IMG/VR virus record: IMGVR_UViG_3300037067_022526
Span: 32,001-96,000 of that record
Direction: 5' to 3' (one strand)
Length of the DNA stretch: 64,000 bases
From: a virus
Lineage: Duplodnaviria; Caudoviricetes
The position numbers and the translations under genes are program-made. A model generated the notes under the pieces. That model was not told the origin of the DNA, made no database searches, and saw nothing but the letters and a program-made list of their open reading frames with translations. Positions 25,501 to 42,055 of the stretch are shown in pieces. Position 1 is the first letter of the stretch, and every line of letters starts with the position of its first letter.

Positions 25501-27945
25501 GGTATGCCAGGTGGTAATGCTGCACCAGTAGGGCCAAAGCCAATGCCCGCACCAACCAAACCGATGGGTATGGATGGCGGATCGCCAATGTCTCCCAAGC
25601 CAATGGATTTGGAAAATGATATTCCCGATCCAATGGACGAGCCTGTAAGTGAAGACCCAATGATCGAGAGTGACCCAACAGGTGGTGCGTCTCCAATTGA
25701 AGATGCAACAAGTATTGGAGATGACTTATCGGGCGGGGAGGAATTTTCCGATGATTTCGGAACCGATGATATCGATCTAGGATTCGGTGGCGCAGGCGAA
25801 GGCGACATGGGAATGGGAGAAACAGTAACCCTCGAAATACCCGCCGAAGCAGTCGATGCTATTCAAACCTTATTTGATGCATTGCAGGGTCAAATAGGTG
25901 CCGTAGACACAACTGGTGACTTAGATATGGGAGAAGTAGGCGACATCGGAGAGCCAGATTTGGGTCTTGAAAACGGTGGCGACGAAATTCCAGGGATCGA
26001 GGAAACTGAAGATTCTGGAATTCCAGGATTAATGGAAGATCAGGGCGAGGAAATACCGGGTGTTGAGGATGATTCAGTTGAACACGAAGAGTCCGAAACT
26101 CCCGCAGAAGAGATAGAAGAGCATTTGCCAGGCGGCGAAGAATCTGGTGATACCGAATCAGAGACAGAAGCAGATGAAGGTTCTGATAAACCAGATTTCC
26201 TCAAAGGCGATGATGATACCGATGACGATGGTGACGATGATGGACCAGATGGTGGTGGTGGTAAGCCAGTTATCAAGAAGCACACCGAGGATAAGGGATG
26301 TGCAGCACCAATGTGTCAGAAATCCGAAAGCGAAGAAGGACAGGAAAAGGTTGCTTCTCTGGACAGATTCCTAAGTGGAATGAAAACCGGAACCATGAAG
26401 CGGACTCAAGATGCTCTTGACAGCCTTTTTGATGGGATTATACGACAAGCAGAACTTGGCAAAGAAGCCAAAGAAGCAGATGATGTCAAAAAGGTAGAAT
26501 ATAAGGAAAATAAGGAGGGTGATAAAGTTAAGGTTAAACCCGCCCAGGATGCCGAAGGCATTGGTAAAATACAAGATAAAGGCAAAATAGGGCACGAAGA
26601 AAAATTCGATGCCAAAAAGCCAGATGTGCCCCGTGAAAAGCAATTGCTTGGAGACGAGGGTAAAGATATGGGAGTTAGTGAGTCGGAGGATTTGCCAACA
26701 GTGCCTCATGGCGGTTCCCTAATGGACGGGGAAGAACACTACAAGCCAGAACAAGGCAACGTACTTGATGGGAATCAAGGTGGCAAGAAAGCGTCTTCGA
26801 AGTCTAATGTTAAAATAGCAGCCGCATCATGTAAATGCGGAAATCCAGTTTGCAAATGCAAATGCAAAGAAGGCGGGGAATGCACCTGCAAGCCAAACAA
26901 GGAAGCAAAGAAGCAGAAAGGTGTAACTTACGAAGGCAAGCATTATGATACAAATCCTTGGGCCGTTTGCCATACTACCGTGGACAAAAAGGAAGATCCA
27001 GATAAGTATGAGCGGTGTGTCCAAGATGTCAAAGAAAAATCCGCAGATATGCCCAAAAAGGAGAAAGATATGGCTCAAGCAGAGAGCAACAAAAATGTAA
27101 AAACTGCCAAGGTTTGGACGATAGCCGAAGGGCACAAACACTATAGTGCTCTCTCGAAGAAAGCCGCATCTGGACAGACCACAGTTAAGCTACAGGACGG
27201 AATAACATACTCGTTAATGCGAGATCAAAATCAGAATTTTATACTGATTGCACAAAATTCTGATGAAATAATAAAGGAATCACAGACAGTTACGGTGAAT
27301 AGAGTAAAAAGTCTAGAAGATGATCCTGATATTAACCAATCTTCTGGGCCAGGAAAAGGCAAGGTTAAAGGTAACCAAACGCACAGCCTTGCAGTTGATG
27401 AAAAGAAGCCGAGCGAAGGAATGAGTGAACCATCGATACCGGAAGCACCTGATGGTGGACAATTAAAACGAGAACACACTTACGACAATAAACTCGATAT
27501 GCCAGAGATTCCAGCAGGTGGTGGAATGAATTCCGAATACGACAAGAATGAGAAGAATACCCCTGAAAAACAGGATCAAATGCTAGGAAAGAATAACGAA
27601 ACATACGCAACAGATGACAGTGAGGCCATTAAATTAGCATCAAGATTAGCAAAAGCAAACTTGATCACACTTGACGAAATACCCGATAAGGTTGCAATGT
27701 TCAGACGCTTTACACCAGAACAAATGAAAGACTACGAAGATCTTTTGAAGAAAGCAAGTACGAGCAAGGGAATGCAAAAGGAAGCGTCAGTACCAGATAC
27801 TGAAGTTCCAAATATGACCAAGAGCCCCACTGAGAGTGAACCAACTCTTCAAGAAGGCATCCAGTCATTGTTTAAACTAGAACAAAGAAACAAAGATTAT
27901 GAGCGCTATTCTAGTGAAAGAGGCGATCATCGATTGTTTCACTAA
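22555..27945 (+). CDS. Giant acidic scaffold/inner-head protein with Zn ribbons
   Basis: 1796 aa, low complexity (KPM repeats, D/E tracts), CxxC pairs, many KxA(S/Q/A) motifs; lies between protease and capsid genes. Confidence 0.6.
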   Translation: MLDAKTRQALAEKLQGHIKKASSNVSTKVEAERGDYKIVLTADKITQLYKGQTVGTIRVAELDEDTIGYINSNPDESARTMLDGFRENFDIDEFEKTAAHSTQNEDTYQKVTQKQLDDQKITLHPRTDEHYKNITQKQIPEHGQRPGTYEYTTEAQLREERETFYGASRTSGDWKQEDRNVVTEGQFDEGVNTYSDIGETNRGEIGANYDGGLDKQWKQIGEKQLMELLKSHEWTEPLTITEGKDQLSKQDGELARLTAEVANNIVKESLNTLGKTVLAAGITPKELAGIVQRLISHESKYSVLANVIANYKPSDVAAINRKVAKAQVFGKTANTGADWSPYLAADVLIRQLSKLAYAPQYIVDGLVALSEQDLEGKISEACEHCLNAKEEDKKANSSVDIFRKVIAEPVKPTKDVTVGDDSDGMYAYKGLISEVSASTSDRKKFADAAATLAKAKVAETTGKELELIPQSIDVNEDDGHFEVILIDAKKNEETLKVRAEKRRTMVKEAQMGGAGGMPPAAGPEMGNPAAPPGGGDMGMPPPGEALSQAPPAETPDVEETTGEPQPPGSVCPVCGSNDVDVDNGEFRCNNCGGEGNISVRMEVSKWPETIQETEEQGDEGFGLGAEEESSAAASEEGLGGEGGPMGGEGEGATLPNVPVGASVKVRDILKKTAQSNLNPYLASVVRITPVVLEKIKAENIKIGSVCPNCGGHNTDLLKSEFRKGQDGICWDCLQEYNMQVRSAKNQKHRVYAQYVWKPNKIAESECDGCNRLKAAFIQSLENYGINWNKFANTRTVKEQGDIILKMAKAGALDLSDGLKATLPLEKVAASPRWKGYDKLDKFPSSSCLERISRRFGENATSMSGPCQGKPLAECVCGQLEQLKIYSDGLAAKVASTYMSNDPMIHSPVKTCIAMFVKDDYNFDDACTICEGLRAAHASIEDLVIEAIAQIGPSPRLKMPKPMAPKPMAPKPMDMSTPTAKPMGMPGGNAAPVGPKPMPAPTKPMGMDGGSPMSPKPMDLENDIPDPMDEPVSEDPMIESDPTGGASPIEDATSIGDDLSGGEEFSDDFGTDDIDLGFGGAGEGDMGMGETVTLEIPAEAVDAIQTLFDALQGQIGAVDTTGDLDMGEVGDIGEPDLGLENGGDEIPGIEETEDSGIPGLMEDQGEEIPGVEDDSVEHEESETPAEEIEEHLPGGEESGDTESETEADEGSDKPDFLKGDDDTDDDGDDDGPDGGGGKPVIKKHTEDKGCAAPMCQKSESEEGQEKVASLDRFLSGMKTGTMKRTQDALDSLFDGIIRQAELGKEAKEADDVKKVEYKENKEGDKVKVKPAQDAEGIGKIQDKGKIGHEEKFDAKKPDVPREKQLLGDEGKDMGVSESEDLPTVPHGGSLMDGEEHYKPEQGNVLDGNQGGKKASSKSNVKIAAASCKCGNPVCKCKCKEGGECTCKPNKEAKKQKGVTYEGKHYDTNPWAVCHTTVDKKEDPDKYERCVQDVKEKSADMPKKEKDMAQAESNKNVKTAKVWTIAEGHKHYSALSKKAASGQTTVKLQDGITYSLMRDQNQNFILIAQNSDEIIKESQTVTVNRVKSLEDDPDINQSSGPGKGKVKGNQTHSLAVDEKKPSEGMSEPSIPEAPDGGQLKREHTYDNKLDMPEIPAGGGMNSEYDKNEKNTPEKQDQMLGKNNETYATDDSEAIKLASRLAKANLITLDEIPDKVAMFRRFTPEQMKDYEDLLKKASTSKGMQKEASVPDTEVPNMTKSPTESEPTLQEGIQSLFKLEQRNKDYERYSSERGDHRLFH

Positions 27946-28020
27946 TAGTTTCTCGTAGTTAGAGACTATATGCCTTCCCCCAAAAAGGGAAGTGAATCAT
28001 AATAAACAAGGAGATAATAA

Positions 28021-28701
28021 ATGGCTCTTATAGAAGTATACCATGTTGTAGCGTCTAATCTTCCAATAGATCCAGATGTAACAACAGACATACCACAAGG
28101 TAGTATTATTGGTTTGAATCACGATGCCAATGTGGTTTTTGCCGATGCGGCTGCTGCCGTTAATGTACTACCTATCGGTATCGCCGGCGATTCTCGTTCG
28201 ACCGGAACCTCTTATACTCCTGAGTCTGGCTCTTCTCTGACTCGTGTGCCTGCGGTTCAAACCGATGGTGCCTTAATTATGGGTGCTTATGGTGCTGCAA
28301 GCAGACGCACACAAAACAGAGTAGCCGATCAGGGCAACGAGGTTCTTGCTAGTTGCAAGATGACTTGTTATCACTCAGGCGGTGAGTTCTGGACAGATCA
28401 GTATGAATTAGTCCAGGCCAATGCACACGACCTATGCGAGTATGTTCCGGGCGAACTACTGTACTGCTCGGCATCCGATGAGACCGTTGGCGCCGAAGAA
28501 GCCGCAGCTGGCGAAACAGCAGCTCGCGCAGGACGATTTACCGATAACCCTGTCACCAACTTTATTGTTGGTATGACAGTTCAAACACCGACTGCGTATC
28601 CAAGCGGTGTTCCAGGAACAGATGTAGGATTTACCGCTTTGCCAGAGGGTGGAAACTCTTTGTCCTACGGCACATTTCTACATGCCAAACTAACCCTATA
28701 A
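28021..28701 (+). CDS. Putative capsid decoration/cement protein
   Basis: 226 aa, Gly/Ala/Val-rich, strong RBS, directly before the capsid gene. Confidence 0.55.
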   Translation: MALIEVYHVVASNLPIDPDVTTDIPQGSIIGLNHDANVVFADAAAAVNVLPIGIAGDSRSTGTSYTPESGSSLTRVPAVQTDGALIMGAYGAASRRTQNRVADQGNEVLASCKMTCYHSGGEFWTDQYELVQANAHDLCEYVPGELLYCSASDETVGAEEAAAGETAARAGRFTDNPVTNFIVGMTVQTPTAYPSGVPGTDVGFTALPEGGNSLSYGTFLHAKLTL

Positions 28702-28776
28702 GGTTAGTCGATAGAAATAGTAATTGGTCTATTATATATCTTTAGATTCTAATAGACAGATAAAGGAGTTAATTAA

Positions 28777-29646
28777 ATGTTAGACAAGACAAAACTTACT
28801 AATGCCCAGAAAGAGGCAATCATAGCCCAGGCATTGAACACTGACGAGGGTAGAGTTGCTCTAGCGCAAGCTATGGTCGAGCCTATTCGTCGGTCCCTGG
28901 AATACCAGGCGGTAGGACGCAAGCTCCTGTTGGTAGACGAGCTACCCCAGGGTGCTTTGGCCCGTTACGAGCGCGACGTGAGCGCAATTGGCCATATAGT
29001 TGCTCGCCGTGGTGCTGTGCCCGATCAGATTCAGGAAGGTGAAGAAATTCTCGTTCCGACATTCGAAATCGCTGCAAATCCACAGGTTCGTTTGTCTGAG
29101 ATTAAGGCTCGCCGGTTTTACATTGTAGACAGAGCCCAGATCAAAGCCAAAGAAGCAATCCAGAAAGAGGAAGATGCGAACATCTTCTCGGCTCTAATTG
29201 CTGCTGTGGATACCCGTGGTGATCAGATTGTGACCAACTTTGGTTCGCTATCTCCTGCTTCACTTAATACTGCTTTCCGCTTTATTGAGCAGCACGACCT
29301 AGTTGCAACCAAGATCGTCGTTCATGCCAACCAGTATGCGGGTATCCGTGTATTTGGCAAGGACTTCTATGACGAAGCAAGCACTCGCGAGATTCTCACC
29401 AGTGGTTTGTTCGGTCACTTGTGGACGGCAGATATCCACGTTTCAAGCAAAATGGATCCTGATGTAGTGTTGGTAGTAGCATCTCCTGACACAGTCGGGG
29501 CTTTTCCAATTCGCCAGGATATAACAGTTTTGCCTGCAGACGATCCAAAGAAATTGCGGCTCGGCTGGGTTATTTATGAGGAAGTAGGAATTGTGGTAGT
29601 CAACGACTACGCAGTGAGCAAGATCGAAGTTGGTCTAGCTACCTAA
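28777..29646 (+). CDS. Major capsid protein (HK97 fold)
   Basis: LAQAMVEPIRRSLEYQAVGRKLLLVDELPQG...PTFEIAANP...LGWVIYEEVG; strong RBS; followed by a terminator. Confidence 0.85.
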   Translation: MLDKTKLTNAQKEAIIAQALNTDEGRVALAQAMVEPIRRSLEYQAVGRKLLLVDELPQGALARYERDVSAIGHIVARRGAVPDQIQEGEEILVPTFEIAANPQVRLSEIKARRFYIVDRAQIKAKEAIQKEEDANIFSALIAAVDTRGDQIVTNFGSLSPASLNTAFRFIEQHDLVATKIVVHANQYAGIRVFGKDFYDEASTREILTSGLFGHLWTADIHVSSKMDPDVVLVVASPDTVGAFPIRQDITVLPADDPKKLRLGWVIYEEVGIVVVNDYAVSKIEVGLAT

Positions 29647-29681
29647 TCCTAACCTAACGTAGTCAGTAATAAGTAGTTATG

Positions 29682-29724
29682 AAGGGTGTAGCATTTTAAA
29701 GGGTGCTACACCCTTTTATTTTTT
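29682..29724 (+). terminator. Rho-independent terminator
   Basis: AAGGGTGTAGCA-loop-TGCTACACCCTT followed by a T-rich tract. Confidence 0.85.
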
Positions 29725-29834
29725 CAAAATTATTTCTTCATAGATGATATTACCTTGTATAATGTATTATGAAGCAGTGCTAAAATGTATATACATTGGC
29801 ATTTGCTGGTATTGTATATACAATTGGAGATAGT

Positions 29835-31700
29835 ATGGCGGAAAGAAAAATATTTAATTTCAAATCAGAGATGCTCGTAGACCTGACTATTAAAAATGAG
29901 GGATATCATCCTGATACATTTGGCAGGACTTCGAATAAGTTTATATGGGCTACTTGTAGATTTTGCGGAGAACCATCTCGTATACGCAAGGGGCATTTTA
30001 TTAAGAAAGGTTCAGCTTGCCATAAAGAATGCCGATTCAAAGAACAAAGCATTTCAGGATCACCCTTTGCCGATCCAGAAGTCAAAGAAAAAACTCGACA
30101 AACCAACCTTGCTAGATATGGTGTGGAACATGCCAGCCAGAATAAAGAAATAGCCAAGAGGATATCTCAAAGCCGTATGACTGAAGAAAGTAAAGCCAAA
30201 TCTGCAAACACTAATTTGGATAGATATGGTGTTGTGAATCCCTTTCAATCAGAAGAAATCAAAGAAAAATGCAAACAAACCAACCTAGAGAAATATGGCA
30301 CAGAGCATGCCATGCAAAGCGATGAGATCAAAAAGAAAACCATTGAAACTCTGAAATCTAAGTATGGTGTTGACAATTTAGCCAGTATTCCGGGAGCGAA
30401 AGATAAAAAAATACTAACCAATATGGAACGATATGGTTGTGAAAACCCGATGCAGAGTGAAGAGATAAAGAGCAAAACAAAAGATACAAATATTAGCAAA
30501 TACGGTGTATCGAATCCAATGCAAAATGAATCAATACGACAGAAAGCCTACGAGACCAATATTGAAAAATACGGATATCCACATGCTCTACAAAACAAAG
30601 ACATTATGGCATCTGCGACCGCGTCATTCAAAAAATCAGTCATTGCAAACGAAAGCGGAAAATTTAATCTATCTAATGCTCTTCGAGGCAATAAATTCTG
30701 GGAAGCCATGAAAGAAGGAAAATCCATAAAACAACTATGCGAAGAATTTGATTTACAAGCCAATAGTTTAGGTGCTCGGCTTCTTAATCCTGAATTTGCT
30801 CAGCTTTATTATAACACTTATACCTTTCCCAAAAATCAAATGCAACGAGATGTGATGAATGAAATTCAGAAATATCCGATTACTATTATTTTTAATGATC
30901 ATAGAACAATTAAACCATTTGAGTTAGATATTTATTTTCCAGATAATAATTTTGCAATAGAATTTAATGGTAATTTCTGGCATTCTGAAGCATATCTATC
31001 ACAAGATAAAGCGAAAACTAAACATATAAATAAAACCAGACTATGTCAGGAAAAAGGCGTTCGTCTTTTTCATATTTTTGAACATCAATGGATTAAACGT
31101 AGATTTCAAATACTTAATTTCATTAAAACTATTTTAGGTGTTAATTCTATTAAAATAGCAGCTCGTAAATGTACTATAACAGAAGATATGTGCAAGAAAT
31201 TTTATGACGATAATCACATACAAAGTTGGGGTAAAAGAACTATCAAATGTTTTAACCTTGTTTATAATAATGAGATAGTTGCAAGTATGTCTGCTGCCTC
31301 TCATCATCGTCAGAATGTTGATAAGAATGCCATAGTTCTTAATAGGTTATGTTTTAAAGACGGCGTTAATGTTCAGGGTGGATCAACTAAACTATTTAAA
31401 CATTTCATTGACTGGGCCAAATCTGAGGGCTATAATAAAATTATTTCATGGTCTGACAACTGCTGGACCGATGGTGGTATATATAAAGTTCTGGGATTTA
31501 CGTTAGAAGAAGAATATGGTCCCGATTACTTTTATTGGGATAATAAAAACAGAATTACCAGATCTAAACAGAGTCAACAGAAGAAGAAAACCGGTTGTCC
31601 AGAAGATATGACCGAACGAGAATGGTGCATCCAAAATAATTTATATCGCGTTTGGAACTGCGGTAAAAAGAAATGGATCTTTAATCTTGTGGAGAAATGA
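29835..31700 (+). CDS. Free-standing Hef-like/PD-(D/E)XK endonuclease with tandem (K/R)YG(V)xN repeats
   Basis: About seven TNLxKYGVxNPxQ-type repeats; ELDIYFPDNNFAIEFNGNFWHS nuclease motif; GGAG RBS before ATG 29835. Confidence 0.7.
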   Translation: MAERKIFNFKSEMLVDLTIKNEGYHPDTFGRTSNKFIWATCRFCGEPSRIRKGHFIKKGSACHKECRFKEQSISGSPFADPEVKEKTRQTNLARYGVEHASQNKEIAKRISQSRMTEESKAKSANTNLDRYGVVNPFQSEEIKEKCKQTNLEKYGTEHAMQSDEIKKKTIETLKSKYGVDNLASIPGAKDKKILTNMERYGCENPMQSEEIKSKTKDTNISKYGVSNPMQNESIRQKAYETNIEKYGYPHALQNKDIMASATASFKKSVIANESGKFNLSNALRGNKFWEAMKEGKSIKQLCEEFDLQANSLGARLLNPEFAQLYYNTYTFPKNQMQRDVMNEIQKYPITIIFNDHRTIKPFELDIYFPDNNFAIEFNGNFWHSEAYLSQDKAKTKHINKTRLCQEKGVRLFHIFEHQWIKRRFQILNFIKTILGVNSIKIAARKCTITEDMCKKFYDDNHIQSWGKRTIKCFNLVYNNEIVASMSAASHHRQNVDKNAIVLNRLCFKDGVNVQGGSTKLFKHFIDWAKSEGYNKIISWSDNCWTDGGIYKVLGFTLEEEYGPDYFYWDNKNRITRSKQSQQKKKTGCPEDMTEREWCIQNNLYRVWNCGKKKWIFNLVEK

Positions 31701-32878
31701 TGCGAAAAAATTCATCAATAATTTTAAGAATTAGCCAAGAAGATAACTTGCTATTAGATGTTAAATCTAAAATACTTAAAACTAATAAGTCCCAACTGTT
31801 GTTAAATGGGGCATTTAATTATTGGAATGGTAGCGATAAAGAGTGGTCAGATAAGTTGCTTAAACTATACCAAGAGAGTGATACAAATAAATCCCACATA
31901 GTTAATATGGTATTCGCATACTATCGCAGAACAGGGTATCCTCACCGCAAATTATCTAATCAGGATATGATTAAAATTATGCACACTTTATCTTCCACTA
32001 AGAATCCACTGATAGGTAATGACCATTTGCAGACCAACAATGTGGGTATACCCGTAGCTAGTTGTTTCCACCCTCATATGATGAAAGTGCGATGCCTATC
32101 CAGGTATTTGTCTCCCTCAGAATTATATAATAACGACGAAAAGTTTAAAGACGCCATCAATCGTTGTTTTGAATTGGGTAACAAACCAAACGAAGCGAAT
32201 ATTCGCCGTATCCTCCGCACTCGTGACGGTGTCCGTAGTGCAGTTAATTTTAAGCCAGTTATAGCTAAATATATTTATCAGAACTATGCCCCCACCGGAG
32301 GTAAGGTCCTCGACCCTTGCGCTGGCTACGGTGGCAGACTAACCGGACTTATCTCTACTAATAAAAACCTTCTCTATCACGGTATAGACCCCTGCCCAGA
32401 GACCACAGTGGGTAACACCCAACTAGCAGCCTTCTATTCCCGCCTATACGAACCCATAACTAAAGAATTGCAGTGGAAGTTTAGGTTTCGTCACGATTTA
32501 GGTTGCGCAGAGGATGTCTTGCCCACTTTGCCAGATAAAGAATATGATTTGGTCTTTACTTCGCCACCTTATTTTAATGTAGAACAATATGACACTTTGC
32601 CTAATCAGAGCTACCTCAGATATCCTGATTATGAGTCCTGGCGGGATAAATTCTTATCTGTTTTAATCAAAGAATCTTGCCGGGTCTCCAAGCAGTATGT
32701 AGTATTAAATGTTAAAAACTATAAGAGCTATCCGATAGCAGACGATGCTCTAAAGTTTGCGGAGCAAATGGGATATGGAATACATAAGACTTACCAAATG
32801 AGATTAGCCAATAGCGAATTTCACAGAAGAGAGAGTGAACCGACATATCATGTTGAACCTATTTATGTGTTGTTGTGA
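31697..32878 (+). CDS. Amino-DNA methyltransferase (N4-C or N6-A) with possible N-terminal RHH-like segment
   Basis: Motif I VLDPCAGYGG and motif IV FTSPPYF. Confidence 0.85.
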   Translation: MMRKNSSIILRISQEDNLLLDVKSKILKTNKSQLLLNGAFNYWNGSDKEWSDKLLKLYQESDTNKSHIVNMVFAYYRRTGYPHRKLSNQDMIKIMHTLSSTKNPLIGNDHLQTNNVGIPVASCFHPHMMKVRCLSRYLSPSELYNNDEKFKDAINRCFELGNKPNEANIRRILRTRDGVRSAVNFKPVIAKYIYQNYAPTGGKVLDPCAGYGGRLTGLISTNKNLLYHGIDPCPETTVGNTQLAAFYSRLYEPITKELQWKFRFRHDLGCAEDVLPTLPDKEYDLVFTSPPYFNVEQYDTLPNQSYLRYPDYESWRDKFLSVLIKESCRVSKQYVVLNVKNYKSYPIADDALKFAEQMGYGIHKTYQMRLANSEFHRRESEPTYHVEPIYVLL

Positions 32879-33239
32879 TTCACTCCCCTCCCCTTCATAG
32901 AGGAGAATCACCGATAATTGGGTGTTACCCACTACGGTTTCGTTGCAATTCACTCCCCTTTTCAGGGGAGAAACACCGTGGCATAAGGAGAAACAGCAGT
33001 GGCAAAGGTTGCAATTCACTCCCCTTTTCAGGGGAGAAACACCATTGGCGCATTGTTCTGTTGCCATGTCGTTGTTGCAATTCACTCCCCTTTTCAGGGG
33101 AGAAACACCCATCGAGTGATGTAGCGGTGAAAGCGTCGGTTGCAATTCACTCCCCTTTTCAGGGGAGAAACACCTTTATCTTTGCTGCTGCGTGGCCGTG
33201 GCCGTTGCAATTCACTCCCCTTTTCAGGGGAGAAACACC
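32872..33239 (-). CRISPR. CRISPR array 1: five identical 36-bp repeats plus one degenerate terminal repeat, five spacers of 29-30 bp
   Basis: + strand repeat GTTGCAATTCACTCCCCTTTTCAGGGGAGAAACACC at 32942, 33008, 33074, 33139, 33204; degenerate copy 32872-32912. Confidence 0.97.
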
Positions 33240-33350
33240 CGAGCACTCATAACTTGATATAATTCAGCACCTTATGAGTATTCAGGGTCACAAATTTTGA
33301 GTCGCCCAATTCACTTTTCAAAGAACACTTCCCATTTTCTACGAATTCTC
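33240..33350 (-). promoter_or_regulatory. CRISPR leader 1
   Basis: Near-duplicate of 36162-36275; contains the inverted repeat ACTCATAA/TTATGAGT. Confidence 0.75.
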
Positions 33351-33380
33351 AGTATATTGTACTTGCTCTGCTGCTAAAAG

Positions 33381-35687
33381 TCAAATCAATTCTTCCATGT
33401 ATCCCAAAAATTCAGTATCGTATTTTCCTGACCACACACACATTCCAGGTATTTTTTCATAGGGTTTAGTATAGTTTAAAATCGTTTTAATATTGCCTTC
33501 GAAAATTTGTACACTATTTCTAACTATATCTGTCGATGTTGGATATTCGATATTATCTATGTTTTCTGGTTTAACTATAACAGTTATTTTATTATTAGGT
33601 ATAACCTGATAAATGTCACCAACATCTTTCATGTATTTTTTTTGTTCAAAGCTCATTAAGCTCCCGATTGTAACAACTTTGTTATTTAAATTGCCAACTA
33701 CATTAAGATTGCCTATTTCATCTTCCATTGCTTCTGCGCAATGTTCTGGTCCTATTTTTCCGAGAGCGTAATATTCTCGAAAAATTTTTGCTCCATCTCT
33801 GAATTCTTTGTTTTCAGTAAAATCATCTAAATCTAACTCGAAAACGTATAGTGTGGAATCATTAAAGACATTATCTCGATTGATTCGACCAGCCAATTGC
33901 AAAGCACTATTTAAATTGCAGTTTTCTCTGAAACCATTTCTGAAAGAAATGTTTATTCCAGATTCTATGCACGATGTTGCAATTAATATGAAATTCTCAT
34001 CGGAACTTAATCGTGATTTGATATCTTCTAATATGACCTCTCGATCTGTAGCACAAAGTGCTGTGGACATGTGTAATACATGTTCACGCCCAATTATCTT
34101 TGATATTGTTTTTGCAACCAATGCTGCGTTTTTGACAGTGTTAAAAACCGCTACTACCGGACCTTTGCTGCGCTCATTTATAACAGCATTACAAATTTGG
34201 GGTAAAGATAGTTTATTCCAATGCCCGTTATCTTGTATGCCGCCTAATTGCTTTATTGTAACTCTGGATTTTTCTTGTTTAAGAGTTATCTCTGAAATCT
34301 CTGGTGGAACTATAGATGGGACATTATAATCAAAACCATCTAAGACATATTTTCTAAATCGCTTGATTTCCCAAGGCTTCGTCATAGACCCAGACACAAA
34401 CAGTACTCGGCATCCCATATTTTCAACTAACCATTTTAAGTAATATAATGTAAGTGGCCACAATTTTGAGGGCAGGCAACAATGAGACTCGTCAAAAATA
34501 ATGAATTTACCGGCTAAATTGAGATACTTTCTAAGCTTTTTAGGTGTGTATCCAGCCAAAGTTTCACAAAATTGTACTGCGGTTGTGCAGGTAATTGGAC
34601 AATTCCATGTCTGTGTATAAAGTTTTGCGGATAGATCATGTTCAAAATCTACTCCAAGATGATGCTCTGCAACGGTTAATTTATCATCTTCTTCGGGCAA
34701 AACAATTGCTTTTCTATAAGTGTCTGCAGTTTGGCTAATAATATTAGTATAAGGTGCAACATAAATTATACCTGACATATTATTAGTATTAACAGTATGT
34801 AAAGCATATGCCAAAGATGATAAAGTTTTGCCATTACCAACTTCACTAGCAAGATATGTAAATGATGCGGAAATTTCTGAATGTCTACACGATTGATATA
34901 TAGCTTGCCTTATTTTGTTCCTCTCGGTTTCTGCTGAAAAGCTACTAACATATTTATCTAGTTGTAGTAATCTTTCATTTGCTTTTATTGGGATTGTGTC
35001 TTCTACTATGAAGTTCTTGTAATTTTTAGCAGTGTCATAGTAGTCTGCTGTTACGAGTACGCTTAATGCTAATCTTGATAGTGGAGCACTAATATTCTTG
35101 TTATAATTCATTCCGCTTTTCAGAGGAGAAACACTTAGGGGTTCAACTAAATTTATTTCTTTTTTATGAAGTTCCATTAGCTTGTCTAATTTTGCATCGA
35201 CATATTCGCTCATGAGCATGTCTGTTTCTTTTACCCACGGACATCTTTCCCCTAGTAAATTATTATCTCGAAGGTCATCGTATAGATTTTTTTGGTATCC
35301 GAGATGATGAGCGAAAACAAGCCATGCTGCGTACCTATATTGATCTGATAAAGACATGTTCCCGTTTTGTGCTGCCTTGTCACATTGACTTATCAGATAA
35401 GACACACCGGCATCAACATGATTTGGCATTTTACAATTTAATACTTTACCACTTAAAACCATTTGACAATAAGGATCAAGCTTCCCTGTGTCATGGTACA
35501 AAATTGCGGTTAATAAATGACATTTTAGAAAATTATAATGATCTTCTGATATGAATGATTTTAATTTTTCTATTTCTTGCTCTGCTTTTAAGTATACACC
35601 AGATATATGATCAATAAAAGATTGTTCTGGAATGTTTCTTTCCAAATCTGCTGAATGGGCTAAGTTACAATTCACTCTACTTTTCAT
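33381..35687 (-). CDS. cas3: Cas3 HD nuclease-helicase
   Basis: AHS...H...YHDTGK HD domain; VGNGKT; IFDESH; ATSCIESGINI; QLAGRINR. Confidence 0.93.
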   Translation of the reverse strand: MKSRVNCNLAHSADLERNIPEQSFIDHISGVYLKAEQEIEKLKSFISEDHYNFLKCHLLTAILYHDTGKLDPYCQMVLSGKVLNCKMPNHVDAGVSYLISQCDKAAQNGNMSLSDQYRYAAWLVFAHHLGYQKNLYDDLRDNNLLGERCPWVKETDMLMSEYVDAKLDKLMELHKKEINLVEPLSVSPLKSGMNYNKNISAPLSRLALSVLVTADYYDTAKNYKNFIVEDTIPIKANERLLQLDKYVSSFSAETERNKIRQAIYQSCRHSEISASFTYLASEVGNGKTLSSLAYALHTVNTNNMSGIIYVAPYTNIISQTADTYRKAIVLPEEDDKLTVAEHHLGVDFEHDLSAKLYTQTWNCPITCTTAVQFCETLAGYTPKKLRKYLNLAGKFIIFDESHCCLPSKLWPLTLYYLKWLVENMGCRVLFVSGSMTKPWEIKRFRKYVLDGFDYNVPSIVPPEISEITLKQEKSRVTIKQLGGIQDNGHWNKLSLPQICNAVINERSKGPVVAVFNTVKNAALVAKTISKIIGREHVLHMSTALCATDREVILEDIKSRLSSDENFILIATSCIESGINISFRNGFRENCNLNSALQLAGRINRDNVFNDSTLYVFELDLDDFTENKEFRDGAKIFREYYALGKIGPEHCAEAMEDEIGNLNVVGNLNNKVVTIGSLMSFEQKKYMKDVGDIYQVIPNNKITVIVKPENIDNIEYPTSTDIVRNSVQIFEGNIKTILNYTKPYEKIPGMCVWSGKYDTEFLGYMEELI

Positions 35688-36161
35688 GGAAGAAACACCT
35701 CAATAGTAAGACTTTCAGTTGTAATTCACTCCACTTTTCAAAAGGGGAGAAACACCACGCCCGCCGATCTTTCCGCCGTCGGTTCCGTTACAATTCACTC
35801 TCTTTTTTCAGGAGAGAAACATCAAGTGTCAGCGTCATGTTGCAAGTCTTTCAAAAAATTAGTTGTAATTCACTCCCCCTTTCGGGGGAGAAACACCTCG
35901 TGATTTATGTTACCTATGCACTCGGCGGTTGCAATTCACTCCCCCTTTCGGGGGAGAAACACCTATACCCGAGTGGGGTACAGAAGTTGGCGTGTTGCAA
36001 TTCACTCCCCCTTTCGGGGGAGAAACACCCCCGCTCGTATAACATACCGTAACTGCCAGGTTGCAATTCACTCCCCCTTTCGGGGGAGAAACACCCGTCC
36101 TGAGAATCAAGCAATGCTAGGTCTAGTTGCAATTCACTCCCCCTTTCGGGGGAGAAACACC
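35664..36161 (-). CRISPR. CRISPR array 2: five canonical and three degenerate repeats
   Basis: GTTGCAATTCACTCCCCCTTTCGGGGGAGAAACACC at 35928, 35994, 36060, 36126 (one-base variant at 35862); degenerate copies at 35664, 35718, 35787. Confidence 0.95.
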
Positions 36162-36275
36162 CGAGCACTCATAACTTGGTATAATTCAACACTTTATGAG
36201 TGTTTAGGGTCACAAATTTTGAGATATTTGGTTTACTTTTCAAAGAACGCCTCTCGTTTTTTGCGAATTCTAGCT
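36162..36275 (-). promoter_or_regulatory. CRISPR leader 2
   Basis: Homologous to leader 1; IHF-like ATTCAACACTTTA. Confidence 0.7.
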
Positions 36276-37250
36276 CAGATCATGTACTTCAAAACTGAAT
36301 CCACATTCCGCAGCATTGGGTACATTGTAATCACTTAGACATATTGGTTTGTCGTTTTTTGCAGTAGGCTTAAGATTATTTATAAATTCAGTTTCTTTGA
36401 AACTTCCAATAGTATTAGAATGGTCTGCCCACCAAACATGTTGTAAATTCATCGAACCCGATGGACGTGCACACGAAGACGATGTTTCGAAAATATGTGG
36501 TAGTATTTTCTTAAGAATATCAATATCTTCTTGGGCAGCATTGGTCAGATGGGCACAATGCGGGTTGACGGAAATTAGTTGATAATACATGCCGTGACGA
36601 ATAAATTTTAGCGCATTTGGACCTATATCTCCAGAAGGATCTTTATCTTTGATCGTTCTTCCTGTATCTGTTGCCAGATGATCTGCGCTTAATGGCGACT
36701 TTTTTGTAACACTTGCCTCGATAATTTCCACTGGCGCAATTGAACACCCGACACCAATCGAAACACATCCAGTACGAACAAATCGAGGTTCTTCTTTCTT
36801 TTCCTTCTCTAGCCCATCTGGTAGAGCTGTTGTTCCGAAAATCCTGACATCAAAATATCGATTTAAAAAGGCTTCAGGGTCAGACTTGGCTAGCGCCATT
36901 GCTTTTCTGGCACATTCAAGCTCTGATGTTCCAGCGTACCCTTTGTTGCGGCTTTCAAATACATACAATCGTTCAGGGTCAAGATTGTCTCTCTTTACAA
37001 AATCCTTGAAAACCGGATTATCATGATCGGACAAGAAATCCCTGATCTTCCTTTTAATAGACATTGGTGATACCCACCCATATCCATCTGGAAATGTGCG
37101 TGGAGCATTTCCTACATCCGGGTCTCCGTTGGGATTTCCACAAATTACTTCATACACTAGCATTCCAACACTGCGATTCAATTGATACATTTTTTTCTCC
37201 AAAGTTGAATTTTCTGTTACGATCGTTTCTGATTTAATTGACTTATTCAT
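36270..37250 (-). CDS. cas7: Cas7 (Csd2, type I-C)
   Basis: GNPNGDPD...NAPR, SIKRKIRD, YFDVRIFG; start moved to ATG 37250 behind a GGAG RBS. Confidence 0.93.
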   Translation of the reverse strand: MNKSIKSETIVTENSTLEKKMYQLNRSVGMLVYEVICGNPNGDPDVGNAPRTFPDGYGWVSPMSIKRKIRDFLSDHDNPVFKDFVKRDNLDPERLYVFESRNKGYAGTSELECARKAMALAKSDPEAFLNRYFDVRIFGTTALPDGLEKEKKEEPRFVRTGCVSIGVGCSIAPVEIIEASVTKKSPLSADHLATDTGRTIKDKDPSGDIGPNALKFIRHGMYYQLISVNPHCAHLTNAAQEDIDILKKILPHIFETSSSCARPSGSMNLQHVWWADHSNTIGSFKETEFINNLKPTAKNDKPICLSDYNVPNAAECGFSFEVHDLS

Positions 37251-37716
37251 TGTTTTCTCCATTCGGATTTTCCACAGACACTTTTTCAAGATCAACACCG
37301 ATCTCTGACTTGACTGATTTTGGCGACCTATAAGCATATCCCATTTCCAGGAGTATTTTATAAATATCAGGATCAAACTCATTAAATTGGTTAACGCTCT
37401 TAAATTGATTATTATGTAAATCAGGCATTATATTCATAAGTTTACTAATTATTTCTTTATATTCTCTGATTGGCAAATAACCATGTTTATATGGCTCTTT
37501 TTCTTTGCGAATATAATTTTCTGCCCAACATTCGTACTTAGAAAAGTTTCCTATAAATGTTCCTAGCGCTCGTTTTGGAAATTTATATGCTTGCTGTATA
37601 TATTCTTGTCCGATAAGCTTTTGAGGTTCATTTATCCCTCTACTCTTAAAATATATTCGGTGAATATTGTTTGCTTGACTAAATAATTGTCCCATTAAAA
37701 ACGGCACACTGTTCAT
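37243..37716 (-). CDS. cas11: Cas11c, translated internally in frame from cas8c
   Basis: Internal AAGGAG-N6-ATG just before NSVPFLMGQLF, the arrangement known for type I-C. Confidence 0.65.
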   Translation of the reverse strand: MNSVPFLMGQLFSQANNIHRIYFKSRGINEPQKLIGQEYIQQAYKFPKRALGTFIGNFSKYECWAENYIRKEKEPYKHGYLPIREYKEIISKLMNIMPDLHNNQFKSVNQFNEFDPDIYKILLEMGYAYRSPKSVKSEIGVDLEKVSVENPNGENNE

Positions 37717-39186
37717 GATCATCTCCTTTGTAAAACCATTTTTACTCAAAACAATCCCCGAAATTGGCACCAGCCATTGCCGTTCATACGGCATTTTTTC
37801 TAATTTACCATCAGAACACTCAATTAGCATTTTGGTATGATTTTTTGCAAATATGCGAGTAACTTTTTTAATTGCTTTTTCGTTTTCGAAAAAGAAGTCG
37901 TATATATCTGAAATTGTTATATACTCTCGCTCTATAATAGATGATATTTTATTACGATCATTTTTCCATATTTTATTAATACATTTAGAAAAATTAGAAA
38001 TAGTTGGCGGGAGAAATTTGCCTTTGCAAACAAATTTAGACGGACGAGTTGATGTTCCGGATACCCATTTGTTTACACAATTAGCAATATTTTTTCCATT
38101 CATTTCTTTATGATATTTAATTTGACACGCACCATTTTTGGGTATAAATAGGACAAAAATTGAACATTGAAATGGTGTTTTATTAATCTCACCGTTTAAC
38201 ATGTGAACAATCTTTTTGCCCTCTGCCTCCCATTGTTCAATATCCATTTGGTTGGATTCTTCTGTTCGACCCTCAATCCAGTCAGATGAAGGTGATAGAG
38301 TAGTAATAACCAAATCTCTTCCGTTGTCTTTTTGGATATAATACCAGAGACCATTTCGAGTGCCTTCTTTTCCTAAATTGTTATAATAAAAATTCTCAGA
38401 TACAATAGAATTGATGATTTTCAGTATTTGTTTGCGAGTAGAATTTCCGATTTTGCACGCATTTACACCAGACATGCCAAATCGTTCATAGCATTCATTA
38501 TCCTCATTTTTAGAATAAAGTTTTATTGTGCCGACGCCGCAAGGGAGCTTGGTTTCAAATGTTTTTGATTTATTTTCCCACCCATCGGCAGGATTGTTGA
38601 GTATGTCGATATCGATAGATGAGTTTGTTTGTTTAGAAATAAGCCAATCATTCACCACCTTCATTGACTCACTATTTTGAACCTTATTGGAAAATTTTAA
38701 TTGTTTCCAATCTGGAATGTCTAGAGAAAAATAACAACTTTTGATCTTTTTATCTTGTTGTGAAATAAAGTCATCTAATTTGTTCATTAAAGCATTTGGA
38801 TCAATTCGAGATAATCTATTGGATAATTCTTTGAAAGCACAAAACCTATCTTGATCATCTATATGTTTAGATATATCGGAATGGCAATATAAATGATGTT
38901 TAATTCCATTCAGTCTTTTCTTAGAATCTTTATTAGTGTCATATTTGAAAGTAAATCCAGATGCAAAATTAGAGTATTTAAAATATCTAAGATCGGAAGC
39001 AGACTCAGACTCAAAAGGTTCGATAGCGATATCAAGATTCTTATCAATTAATATAAGAAAACGTTGACCGTTATTATTTTTGGGCATTTGTGGATGCCAC
39101 GTTGTATCGTTTGTGTTTGATAAATCCCCAATATTCAGACCCCAGCTTTTTAAACTTTCTTCAATTGATAATATTTCATGCAACAT
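37243..39186 (-). CDS. cas8c: Divergent Cas8c large subunit
   Basis: Position between cas5 and cas7; 647 aa; C-terminal PFLMGQLFS helical domain. Confidence 0.7.
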   Translation of the reverse strand: MLHEILSIEESLKSWGLNIGDLSNTNDTTWHPQMPKNNNGQRFLILIDKNLDIAIEPFESESASDLRYFKYSNFASGFTFKYDTNKDSKKRLNGIKHHLYCHSDISKHIDDQDRFCAFKELSNRLSRIDPNALMNKLDDFISQQDKKIKSCYFSLDIPDWKQLKFSNKVQNSESMKVVNDWLISKQTNSSIDIDILNNPADGWENKSKTFETKLPCGVGTIKLYSKNEDNECYERFGMSGVNACKIGNSTRKQILKIINSIVSENFYYNNLGKEGTRNGLWYYIQKDNGRDLVITTLSPSSDWIEGRTEESNQMDIEQWEAEGKKIVHMLNGEINKTPFQCSIFVLFIPKNGACQIKYHKEMNGKNIANCVNKWVSGTSTRPSKFVCKGKFLPPTISNFSKCINKIWKNDRNKISSIIEREYITISDIYDFFFENEKAIKKVTRIFAKNHTKMLIECSDGKLEKMPYERQWLVPISGIVLSKNGFTKEMIMNSVPFLMGQLFSQANNIHRIYFKSRGINEPQKLIGQEYIQQAYKFPKRALGTFIGNFSKYECWAENYIRKEKEPYKHGYLPIREYKEIISKLMNIMPDLHNNQFKSVNQFNEFDPDIYKILLEMGYAYRSPKSVKSEIGVDLEKVSVENPNGENNE

Positions 39187-39203
39187 TTTTAATCTCCATT
39201 TAA

Positions 39204-39887
39204 TTATTTATTTAAATTTTCGTTTTCAAACTTTAGAATTCCATTGGCTGCGATTACTTTCTCGGGACCAAGTTGTAAAATTCCATGAGCGATTCGCAAA
39301 GTTTCTGTTATTGGAAATTGCATAATATATCCATTTTTTTTGTCAAAATATTGTAGGACATATCCGTGTAAAATTTCATTATAATCAGAAATTATGGGAG
39401 TTATAGGTAATCCGACATAATCAGAAAAAAAGTCGCTCGGACCAAGTGTCGGCATTCGATAATATTGTTCTTTACTTAATCGACGATAAAATTGATCGCG
39501 ATATGAATGGGCACAATTAATATGTGCGTATTTTGGGTGAGGTGGTTCTACGGTAGACCTTTTGGCGGTTGCACAAATTTGAAATCTAGGGCGAAGCAAA
39601 GCTGTAGCTTTTATTTGACATGCATTTCCATCTCTTTTCTGTCCTTCTTTTCGAATTGATGACCACGAATTAAAAGCATAATCTAAATATTCTGGTCGGT
39701 GACATATCCCGATAGCTTCTATTTGTATGGATGCACTTTTAACTCTTAAAATTGACTGCATTATACCAAATGCCGCAGTGGGCGTAGGAACTGGATAACT
39801 ACATGGTTCTGATCCGCTATCAGGTCTGGCGAACATGCCTATGGGTCCGCCAACCTCGAATATGATTCCGTAAGATTTCTGGTACAT
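39204..39887 (-). CDS. cas5: Cas5 (Cas5d-like, type I-C)
   Basis: FEVGGPIGMFARPD...SYPVPTPTAAFGIMQSI; AAGGAG RBS before ATG 39887. Confidence 0.9.
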   Translation of the reverse strand: MYQKSYGIIFEVGGPIGMFARPDSGSEPCSYPVPTPTAAFGIMQSILRVKSASIQIEAIGICHRPEYLDYAFNSWSSIRKEGQKRDGNACQIKATALLRPRFQICATAKRSTVEPPHPKYAHINCAHSYRDQFYRRLSKEQYYRMPTLGPSDFFSDYVGLPITPIISDYNEILHGYVLQYFDKKNGYIMQFPITETLRIAHGILQLGPEKVIAANGILKFENENLNK

Positions 39888-39906
39888 TCTGAATCTCCTT
39901 TCAAAC

Positions 39907-39935
39907 AATTATAACCTTAGCGTGATGGGAAGTCA
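39907..39935 (-). promoter_or_regulatory. sigma70-type promoter of the cas operon
   Basis: TTGACT-N17-TATAAT on the minus strand. Confidence 0.8.
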
Positions 39936-39973
39936 AGCGAGAGATATTAGATTTTTTAAAAATATTCGTGGCC

Positions 39974-40002
39974 TTGACAATTTACGTAGCAGGCAATATA
40001 AT
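39974..40002 (+). promoter_or_regulatory. Consensus sigma70 promoter, divergent from the cas promoter
   Basis: TTGACA-N17-TATAAT. Confidence 0.85.
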
Positions 40003-40011
40003 GGATTGTAA

Positions 40012-40046
40012 GATGTTTCTCCCCTAAAAAGGGAGTGAATTGCAAC
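40012..40046 (+). repeat. Solitary CRISPR repeat
   Basis: GATGTTTCTCCCCTAAAAAGGGAGTGAATTGCAAC, in crRNA-sense orientation. Confidence 0.9.
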
Positions 40047-40068
40047 GTGATGATGTCGAGGAAATCAG

Positions 40069-40353
40069 ATGTGGAATTTGACAGAACACGCAAAACCGGT
40101 CACCGGAGAAGAATCTTTAGTAATTTATACTTGTCCGCAATTTCTTGAGGACGAACATCCTGGTATATATTACATACACGAAGCATACTGTATACACAAT
40201 GGTTTCTGTCGTTATTACCCGGATGAAGGTTGGTTCTGTGGGGATAATAAAATGCCAGAACCCGTAGCGTGGATCCGTCCCGAAAAATTGTTAGAGTATT
40301 TTTTGACGCAACTACCCAGCAAAGATCAGTCAGCTACAACACCTTTCAGATAA
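40069..40353 (+). CDS. Hypothetical protein, paralog of 45268..45519
   Basis: MWNLTEHAKPV...WFCGD.KMPEP.AW.RPEKLLE shared with the paralog. Confidence 0.75.
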   Translation: MWNLTEHAKPVTGEESLVIYTCPQFLEDEHPGIYYIHEAYCIHNGFCRYYPDEGWFCGDNKMPEPVAWIRPEKLLEYFLTQLPSKDQSATTPFR

Positions 40354-41252
40354 TCAGATATCGCAGTCCTGATGATATCTACGTAAGAAATTTCACAGTC
40401 ATTTTCATATGCTTGCTTGCGGGCAACTCTTTTTAATTGTTCTAATTGATCACTCAAAATTCGGATGCTGATTGTGATATTCTCAACGACATTTTGAAAT
40501 TTCGACCCAAATTCACATCCGAAATCGCCATCAGACATATGTTGGTTTTCTTGCCGCAGCATCTCTTCGGTATAATCGGTATTCACTTCCCATGTGGGTA
40601 GTTGGCATATCAACCTGTAATCAGGTGCAGTTGAAATTAAATTATATAATAAATCGCCTTTGCGCCTTGGTGACGAGACTATAATAGTTCGTGATTCATG
40701 CACTCCGTCATGTTTGAAGTCGGCAGTGCTGGGAATCAATGCATTATAAATTCTATCACCCGACTGCCCTGGAAATGACGCGATCTCATTGAATACAAGA
40801 GTGAAATATCGCTTGCCCAGGAGATTTGAACTATTGGCGTGAGCAACCATTAAACAAATGTATCCTGATCGATTCCGCCTTGGCAACCAAATTTTGTTCT
40901 GCTCTATTTTGGTTATCTCATCTCGAAAATACTCAGATCGAGTAACAAGCAGTTTCAACTCCGTGAAGAAAGATCTTGCCTCCTCTGCACTATTACAAAC
41001 AGCAAGCTGATAAATCGTGTCCTGGTTTGGGATATTATAATATTCAAACGGATTTGGTATTTCTAATAGTCGCCGTGTCTCTGCCAGTAGCAGCAGTGTA
41101 GCAAGATAATCCTTTCCGCTACGTCTTCCCAAAACGGCAACTAACTCTCGGTATTGTCCAATATAGAAGTTGGACATGATTTCTTTTAACCTCGGATATA
41201 ACTTAATGTTAGGTGTAATTAAATATTGCTCGATAAATTCCATTGAAGTCAT
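40326..41252 (-). CDS. Terminase large-subunit ATPase-like domain fused to a C-terminal ribbon-helix-helix
   Basis: GRRSGKD Walker A; LVFNEIASF Walker B variant; IVSSP motif III; LPTWEVN; EFGSKF; then TISIRI...YVDIIRTAISDYL; start ATG 41252 behind AAGGAG. Confidence 0.75.
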   Translation of the reverse strand: MTSMEFIEQYLITPNIKLYPRLKEIMSNFYIGQYRELVAVLGRRSGKDYLATLLLLAETRRLLEIPNPFEYYNIPNQDTIYQLAVCNSAEEARSFFTELKLLVTRSEYFRDEITKIEQNKIWLPRRNRSGYICLMVAHANSSNLLGKRYFTLVFNEIASFPGQSGDRIYNALIPSTADFKHDGVHESRTIIVSSPRRKGDLLYNLISTAPDYRLICQLPTWEVNTDYTEEMLRQENQHMSDGDFGCEFGSKFQNVVENITISIRILSDQLEQLKRVARKQAYENDCEISYVDIIRTAISDYLKGVVAD

Positions 41253-41357
41253 AAAAAGCTCCTTTCTACTAATACTTACTTCGCTGTCATAATTATTTCC
41301 TGTAAGAATTATGACAAAATTTACCACATAATACATTATACAGCGCAGGAGATGTGG

Positions 41358-41583
41358 AATGTTTCTTCAATGAAGTGAATTGCAACTTGACAACTCCCAC
41401 AGCCAGCAGTATAATGAGCCGTAAGATGTTTCTCTTTTGAAAAGAGGAGTGAATTACACAACATGGTAGTGTGGATTTTACTCATCAATGCCATACTTTG
41501 TGCATTATTCTTCTTTTTCGGCGTTTTCTGCGGATGGAGTTTAAGCTCGGATATAGATGTTTCTCCCCTGAAAAGGGGAGTGA
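41358..41583 (+). repeat. Cluster of three degenerate CRISPR repeats with an embedded promoter
   Basis: Copies at 41358-41386, 41425-41462 and 41556-41583. Confidence 0.8.
41387..41415 (+). promoter_or_regulatory. Consensus sigma70 promoter
   Basis: TTGACA-N17-TATAAT. Confidence 0.85.
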
Positions 41584-41840
41584 TAAAAAATCATATTGCT
41601 GCCGGACAGAAGGGTGCAGAGCTTTTGCGTAATAAATTTGGACTTATTAATATAGAAACCAGATCGGAAAGATACCCCGAGTCCCAAAGTATATCTCCGC
41701 AAAAGGCCCTAGATTTATTAAATGTATCTTGTGTTTGGATATCCAAACCATCTCTTAATGTTGTCATAGAGACATCGACAGGGAATTACCGAGTGAGATT
41801 CAGTGAATTTGACCGATACTTTTTATGCGGAGACAAATAA
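41463..41840 (+). CDS. Hypothetical protein with N-terminal transmembrane helix
   Basis: Hydrophobic N-terminus; RBS supplied by a repeat; contains a repeat fragment. Confidence 0.5.
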   Translation: MVVWILLINAILCALFFFFGVFCGWSLSSDIDVSPLKRGVIKNHIAAGQKGAELLRNKFGLINIETRSERYPESQSISPQKALDLLNVSCVWISKPSLNVVIETSTGNYRVRFSEFDRYFLCGDK

Positions 41841-41842
41841 AC

Positions 41843-42055
41843 ATGACCGAACAAGAGATGAAAATTGCTTTAGAGTGGGTTAAAGAATCCGAAAATACTA
41901 ATGAATATTGCGAGCGTAATCTTTTAATTGACGCCCTAAGACAATTAGAATTTGACCCGCCTGATATAAATAAAGCACAGCAAAGACTTCGAGAATTAAT
42001 TCCGTTAGGTGAACCTTATCATTTAGTTATTCCGCCTGATTTTGTGAAGGAATGA
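41843..42055 (+). CDS. Hypothetical protein
   Basis: GGAG RBS before MTEQEM. Confidence 0.55.
   Translation: MTEQEMKIALEWVKESENTNEYCERNLLIDALRQLEFDPPDINKAQQRLRELIPLGEPYHLVIPPDFVKE

Follow-up and report, generated by a model that had tools for sequence, protein, structure and literature searches.

Introduction

What is a virus-borne CRISPR guide aimed at when its sequence resembles a gene of the virus itself, lying directly beside the array, and how would the carrier be spared? The question arises in a 64,000-nucleotide stretch of phage DNA (the window), which comprises bases 32001-96000 of a 137,762-bp IMG/VR record that has inverted terminal repeats and is rated a complete phage genome. The phage was detected in metagenomes from landfill and groundwater.

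Results

A phage-borne type I-C system predicted to be complete for interference

Four cas genes are encoded on the minus strand of the window, and PADLOC profiles place all four in type I-C. These are cas5c (39204-39908; profile matches including PADLOC Cas5c, 4.6e-12), cas8c (37243-39186; 647 aa; PADLOC Cas8c, 8.6e-44 over residues 109-618), a Csd2-like cas7 of type I-C (36270-37382; PADLOC Cas7c, 1e-39) and cas3 (33381-35687; 768 aa; PADLOC Cas3c, 2e-91). The cas8c product gave no match in Pfam or NCBIfam. Cas3 is an HD nuclease fused to a helicase, and its HD, Walker A (GNGKT) and DESH motifs are intact. As judged from these profile matches, the phage-carried system is an interference-complete type I-C system consisting of Cas5c, Cas8c, Cas7c and Cas3c. 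Cas1, Cas2 and Cas4 (PF01867, PF09827 and PF01930) were absent across the 137.8-kb genome in a search for which control genomes were positive, and Cas6 (PF01881) was likewise absent across the whole genome. A missing adaptation module is usual in phage-borne systems (PMC7162821).

Organization of the two arrays

Repeat comparison delineated two arrays, both on the minus strand. Array 1 (32872-33239) has six repeats: five identical 36-nt repeats, separated by four spacers of 29-30 nt, occupy 32942-33239 and are followed by the 29-nt spacer 1 (32913-32941, minus strand), which has the sense of the mRNA of the neighboring methyltransferase gene, and a degenerate terminal repeat of 41 nt with a 5-nt insertion (32872-32912, minus strand). 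Array 2 (35664-36161) has eight repeats, five good and three degenerate, with four 30-nt spacers and three older odd-sized ones. The minus-strand leaders of array 1 (33240-33350) and array 2 (36162-36271) are conserved, being 93% identical over 98 nt. Because the conserved leaders lie on the right and the degenerate repeats on the left in both cases, the arrays are read from right to left. The first-pass annotation had called 32913-32941 the oldest spacer of array 1; this assignment holds, as the leader is located at the opposite end and the degenerate repeat at the end of spacer 1.

On the minus strand, the 36-nt repeat has a hairpin at its end, followed by GAATTGCAAC, an I-C-like handle. The terminal repeat of array 1 can still form a hairpin (-15.1 kcal/mol), which makes it plausible that spacer 1 yields a crRNA. 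Promoter-like sites near the array 1 leader (33384-33356 and 33321-33294) are consensus matches only. The stop codon of the methyltransferase gene (TGA, 32876-32878) does lie inside the degenerate terminal repeat, as had been pointed out earlier; a CA>TG change relative to the canonical repeat, which is open in that frame, creates this stop. Neither array differed between a landfill run from 2018, a groundwater run from 2022 and an ENA assembly. Thus, the arrays are static and give no sign of continuing adaptation, as expected without an adaptation module.

Repeat sequence also extends into cas3. The start of the gene (35687) and its first eight codons lie within the last degenerate repeat of array 2 (35664-35699, minus strand), which no longer folds (-1.2 kcal/mol). 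With its start inside an array 2 repeat, cas3 sits on the array 2 transcript. A further repeat-like sequence with 5-6 mismatches is found in frame inside the gene (35100-35135, minus strand), where it reads SVSPLKSGMNYN and corresponds to Cas3 residues 185-196, in the segment separating the HD region from the helicase region.

The oldest spacer of array 1 matches the adjacent methyltransferase gene

The plus-strand gene next to array 1 (31697-32878) is an open reading frame for a DNA methyltransferase of 393 aa, identified by DNA-methyltransferase matches in PHROGs, and combines an N6/N4 family methyltransferase with an N-terminal RHH/NikA-like part. The window protein itself falls below the Pfam threshold. 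Among its 301 homologues from phage and metagenome proteins, 21 of the 26 sampled match PF01555 (N6/N4 DNA methylase), the family profile matches PDB 2zie as well as N4-cytosine methyltransferases, and the invariant columns include DPCxG and SPP motifs.

Spacer 1, read on the minus strand, is identical at 24 of 29 positions to 32399-32427 (plus strand) of this gene and shares a 16-base exact core with it. The mismatches fall at spacer positions 3, 7, 8, 25 and 28, three of them within the first 8 nt, and positions 9-24 are exact. The spacer encodes ETVVGNTQL where the gene has ETTVGNTQL, with mismatches 3 and 25 being synonymous, and the 5' flank of the resident site (32396-32398) is CCA, not TTC; these features of the match all agree with the first-pass annotation. 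Together with its flank, the protospacer-like site (32396-32427, plus strand) encodes P-ETTVGNTQLA. The site lies in a conserved stretch of the family, HGIDP..T.VGN, between SAM-binding motif I and the SPPY motif.

Apart from this match, none of the 9-11 spacers has a self match at up to 8 mismatches in the 137.8-kb genome. The best result from 1000 shuffles of the spacer had 7 mismatches and was seen in 4 of the 1000, and the analytic expectation for the spacer 1 match is 3e-5 per spacer; these values rule out a chance match. The similarity stops exactly at the spacer borders, and this confinement fits an acquired spacer rather than a duplicated piece of the gene. In type I systems, several seed mismatches abolish interference, so the carrier very probably escapes cutting by the guide that it encodes.

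The methyltransferase gene (plus strand) and array 1/cas3 (minus strand) are convergent (31697-33239), and no terminator-like site was found between them. Read-through of the methyltransferase mRNA would yield antisense pre-crRNA; 486 nt downstream, the same transcript would carry 29 nt that are nearly complementary to part of its own coding region. Antisense action of the crRNA on the methyltransferase mRNA was considered and is excluded, since the crRNA and the mRNA have the same sense.

Relatives without the cassette at the methyltransferase site

Two relatives of the phage are known as contigs of 2.5-20 kb, and they are described as cassette-less at the methyltransferase site only. L007, a 20-kb NCBI contig, is collinear with the window from a gene for a 1796-aa protein to the methyltransferase gene, with a nucleotide identity of 86-87% upstream and 73-77% in the methyltransferase gene. 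A contig from landfill run X4 has the sequence of L026 and L027 (ENA and JGI), which are 90% identical to the window in the gene for a 289-aa protein and 89% identical in the methyltransferase gene. In both relatives, homology ends in the last codons of the methyltransferase gene and unrelated DNA replaces the array. The CRISPR-Cas block (~32866-41460, 8.6 kb) is, from this comparison of contigs, an insertion at a variable spot.

The other side of the gene differs among the relatives as well. A LAGLIDADG homing-endonuclease gene (L026:766-1761) takes the place of the DUF7487/GNAT gene of the window (29796-31700), and L007 has an extra LAGLIDADG open reading frame farther upstream. On the same contig comparison, both sides of the methyltransferase gene are swap sites.

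A further relative, reached through the 289-aa protein (P0158), is represented by about 20 contigs, all of which end just past the gene for this protein, before the methyltransferase gene, and contain no match to any spacer. No relatives were found in IMG/VR by way of the methyltransferase, Cas7 or the 1796-aa protein, and a search of short protein fragments for more methyltransferase alleles returned distant ones only.

Alleles of the relatives match the spacer better than the resident gene

Both relatives have alleles of the target site that are closer to spacer 1 than the resident one (24 of 29, flank CCA). The L007 allele is identical at 26 of 29 positions, with mismatches at 8, 25 and 28, a CCC flank and positions 1-7 identical. 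The L026/L027 allele, which is also that of the X4 contig, is likewise identical at 26 of 29, with mismatches at 9, 25 and 28, a CCC flank and positions 1-8 identical; its third codon is Val, as in spacer 1. With L007 as the outgroup, positions -1, +3 and +7 have changed in the carrier alone. The orthologous site of the carrier thereby has mutations at or next to the seed (three differences within positions 1-8, plus the -1 base), which we infer would prevent self-targeting. Between the carrier and L026, 4 of the 11 positions from -3 to +8 differ, compared with 1 of the next 21, and the flanking 14 and 50 bases are invariant. Since about 6% of the 11-nt windows in the methyltransferase gene contain as many differences, the concentration of carrier-specific changes in the PAM/seed window is only suggestive as a signal of self-protection.

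At positions 25 and 28, spacer 1 differs from all three alleles, which agree with one another there. These two differences are private to the spacer, so its source would be a fourth allele; position 8 ties the spacer to the L026 lineage. A spacer taken from a fourth allele near the L026 branch is the simplest history for these four sequences, and an origin from the resident gene followed by decay appears less likely. The Val and Ser encoded by spacer 1 both occur at the corresponding columns in methyltransferase homologues, which lends weak support, given an estimated chance of ~15% that random changes would do the same. Identity between the spacer and the alleles (83-90%) overlaps the span seen when the alleles are compared with one another over the whole gene (77-89%). 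Landfill metagenomes contain both the carrier phage and the L026-type allele.

The same comparison bears on an origin within the carrier lineage. An ancestor, or the adaptation complex of a host, might have taken the spacer from the resident methyltransferase gene, with the resulting autoimmunity relieved by changes in the gene (-1, +3 and +7) and in the spacer (8, 25 and 28), so that the guide is now inert. The site lies only 486 nt from its spacer, for which the chance of a random site in 137.8 kb is about 1% as estimated from the coordinates, and acquisition is favored next to an array. The carrier-specific changes at the PAM-adjacent base and in the seed, the degenerate repeat adjoining spacer 1, and a total of 5-6 differences, little above what a gene divergence of 11% allows, would also fit this account. 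However, because spacer positions 25 and 28 differ from three agreeing alleles, it is the spacer and not the gene that must have mutated there. The T at position 8, which gives Val as in L026, would have to be a coincidence (~7%, estimate). The phage lacks Cas1, Cas2 and Cas4, and the flank is not TTC. Taken together, we consider an origin from the resident gene unlikely.

Searches for a protospacer and the flanking sequence

A comparison with viral metagenomes had been proposed as a check on the spacer, and it did not deliver a perfect protospacer: the exact spacer is absent from IMG/VR, and no protospacer with at most one mismatch was found in IMG/VR, JGI metagenome contigs or short protein fragments. 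A codon-degenerate pattern for ETVVGNTQL(S) and a pattern spanning all known alleles each returned nothing from IMG/VR. The codon-degenerate pattern had four matches in JGI metagenome contigs, all of them outside methyltransferase genes, and these were dismissed as chance. Array 1 gave chance-level matches only against GenBank phages in distant mode (E=4), the newest spacers of both arrays (24-nt cores) were absent from IMG/VR, and the searches made with the other 8-10 spacers yielded no target. The closest protospacer-like sites for spacer 1 are the methyltransferase alleles, and not sequences unrelated to methyltransferases.

The expected PAM of type I-C systems is TTC. At the site matched by spacer 1, the 5' flank is a Pro codon (CCC or CCA) in every known allele, and the methyltransferase family never has Phe at this column. 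The canonical TTC therefore cannot occur at the site. Either a different PAM is recognized by this divergent Cas8c, or acquisition bypassed Cas4-type PAM selection and left a spacer that guides poorly or not at all. With its non-TTC flank, the system becomes a candidate for an unusual I-C PAM.

A proposed guide against sibling phages

We lean towards the view that spacer 1 derives from a non-resident allele of the phage's own lineage and that it excludes, or formerly excluded, sibling phages, with the seed mismatches protecting the carrier. Two earlier proposals are thereby retained in part. That the spacer targets the methyltransferase gene of a competing relative agrees with relatives that match at 26 of 29 positions with the seed intact, one of them sharing the Val codon; the lack of a perfect protospacer and of a TTC flank counts against it. 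That the resident gene escaped is consistent with the resident-specific changes at -1, +3 and +7, although their clustering reaches only the ~6% level.

Mechanistically, the array 1 leader would drive minus-strand transcription of spacer 1, and Cas5c would process the transcript; a perfect repeat would supply the 5' handle, and the terminal repeat, which still folds, the 3' hairpin. The crRNA would then be loaded into the phage Cas5c-Cas8c-Cas7 complex. Spacer 1 pairs far better with the methyltransferase gene of siblings that are cassette-less at the site than with that of the carrier, and Cas3 would destroy such co-infecting siblings (heterotypic superinfection exclusion) while sparing the carrier. 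Lacking Cas1, Cas2 and Cas4, the phage must either have inherited spacer 1 or have gained it with help from elsewhere. The spacer may by now be no more than the remnant of a past conflict, and any interference, even against the relatives, is putative.

Origin of the cassette

The static arrays and the missing adaptation genes also invite an explanation in which the spacer is of no use to the phage. Both arrays and the cas genes would have been captured from a host CRISPR locus, leaving spacer 1 as that host's memory of a phage of this lineage; the phage cannot acquire spacers itself, its arrays have stayed the same over years and sites, and the oldest spacers are the likeliest to predate a capture. 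The database comparisons, however, point away from a bacterial donor. None of 185,579 bacterial species representatives (GTDB) contains the repeat core; a 12-nt handle is all that recurs, for example in arrays of Microcoleus and Richelia. Close bacterial relatives of the cas proteins are lacking, and the nearest Cas7 (43% identity) is encoded on another phage-like contig, L013, with the same cas7-array layout. Capture from a host also leaves unexplained why the target is the gene directly beside the array. We regard such a passenger origin as distinctly improbable.

On L013 (JGI 3300002231), an array (L013:11033-11201) directly follows the gene for the 43%-identical Cas7 and has a similar repeat with a hairpin and GGATTACAAC. 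The contig has phage-like genes for SpoVR, a clamp loader, a sigma factor and an intein. L013 and the window system may belong to a family of phage-borne I-C variants. A search of phages with the 6-kb locus gave no match, clusters of the cas proteins contained no variants, and Rfam had no family match within 27800-42000.

Arrays in Microcoleus and Richelia MAGs (L016, L024 and L025) have two features in common with the phage repeat, the 12-nt 3' handle GTGAATTGCAAC and a CCCC/GGGG hairpin; their spacers are longer than those of the phage, with a period of 69-78. The common handle is a weak lead to a cyanobacterial host.

Solo repeats and the question of a regulatory guide

Four solo repeats (40011-40046, 41356-41386, 41425-41460 and 41556-41591) have their crRNA sense on the plus strand, opposite to the arrays, and the CRISPR-Cas block is consequently bounded by repeats of opposite orientation. 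Two of them lie directly behind perfect TTGACA-N17-TATAAT promoters, and each is followed by a plus-strand open reading frame. For the 14 nt that follow the solo repeats, the genome contains no meaningful second site. The repeats at 41425 and 41556 exactly bound a 97-nt stretch common to L007 (L007:13845-13941). This region is a plain 39-codon membrane open reading frame in L007; in the window, the second repeat fuses it in frame to an open reading frame of 125 aa. Inside the CRISPR-Cas block, between these promoter-repeat cassettes and far from the head genes, lies a gene for a 336-aa terminase-large-subunit-like ATPase (40326-41336, minus strand; phrog_2, 9e-11; precomputed MJ0330_N).

A repeat-like hairpin with a handle is also found at ~27965-28003 (plus strand), directly before the ribosome-binding site of the gene for a 226-aa protein (28021). 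It is kept in L007 (L007:5237-5272), where changes in the stem preserve pairing. Its conservation indicates that repeat-like elements in 5' UTRs are common to the relatives, even on a contig without cas genes.

Elements of this kind bring up a regulatory role for spacer 1, in which its crRNA would guide Cascade to the resident methyltransferase gene and tune methylase expression without cutting, in the manner of CreR/CreA. Spacer 1 is partially complementary to a neighboring gene and one of its flanking repeats is degenerate; the phage has solo repeats in several 5' UTRs, and repeat-derived regulatory RNAs are widespread (PMC10120712). In CreR/CreA and mini-array guides, however, the PAM and seed are kept, the distal part is degenerate and a promoter is targeted (Shmakov et al. 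2023, PMC10120712). Spacer 1 is like CreR/CreA in being a repeat-flanked guide partly complementary to a gene of the same locus, and unlike it in the pattern of matching, with a mismatched seed (3, 7 and 8), positions 9-24 matched, no PAM and a target in the middle of an open reading frame, ~700 nt from its start. The earlier suggestion that the guide binds without cutting is disfavored by this reversal of the known guides, and we consider a regulatory function very unlikely.

Discussion

Our preferred reading, a guide directed against siblings, places the locus among virus-borne guides that have already been described. Mini-arrays of the Saccharolobus portogloboviruses SPV1 and SPV2 act in interviral conflicts (Medvedeva et al. 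2019, PMC6858448), and phage and prophage mini-arrays were reported by Faure et al. 2019, as summarised in PMC6858448. In these cases, the virus-borne spacers match relatives, the orthologous site of the carrier is point-mutated and the targets are near the array, a proximity that was called unexplained (PMC6858448). The phenomenon itself is therefore already published (Medvedeva 2019; Faure 2019). The present phage resembles these examples in carrying a leader and array whose spacer matches relatives, in the mutated carrier site and in having an adjacent gene as the target. It differs from the mini-arrays, which are cas-less and rely on the host, in that the virus brings type I-C Cascade and Cas3. 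Unlike SPV1 and SPV2, no reciprocal or perfect target was found; the best relatives have three mismatches and a non-TTC flank.

Systems without Cas1, Cas2 and Cas4, with compact arrays and anti-phage spacers, have been described in large phages and include a type I-C variant (Al-Shayeb et al. 2020, PMC7162821). The system studied here shares with them the absence of Cas1, Cas2, Cas4 and Cas6, the expected Cas5d-type processing and the compact arrays (6 and 8 repeats). Its Cas3 is canonical and includes an HD nuclease, in contrast to the published I-C variant, where another helicase stands in for it (PMC7162821). The genome, at 138 kb, is below the 'huge' class, and the arrays, unlike those in PMC7162821, overlap gene ends (the methyltransferase stop and the cas3 start).

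The arrangement of guide and target also resembles another class of mobile element. Free-standing homing endonucleases of the T4-like kind lie as a cassette beside a gene and cut the allele of cassette-less relatives, the carrier allele being resistant. Here too, a cassette lies beside the gene, its specificity fits cassette-less relatives and point differences would make the carrier allele resistant. Unlike homing endonucleases, the system is RNA-guided, and Cas3 degrades DNA and makes no clean double-strand break. By this analogy, transfer of the cassette between siblings is hypothetical: Cascade-Cas3 would attack the methyltransferase gene of a cassette-less sibling beside the insertion point of the cassette, and recombinational repair from the co-infecting carrier would copy both the cassette and the resistant methyltransferase allele. 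That the guide and the resistant allele form a linked unit driving the 8.6-kb cassette into siblings by RNA-guided homing is a long shot in our judgment. If true, it would account for the frequent targeting of array-adjacent genes by virus-borne spacers.

The allele series of carrier, two relatives and spacer adds to the few virus guides that are aimed at a sibling's gene beside the array, and here the phage also carries the full type I-C interference machinery. Should the guide be active, the phage would fence off its host cell from close kin, and its own target would have to diverge, so that the guide may act as a force for speciation.
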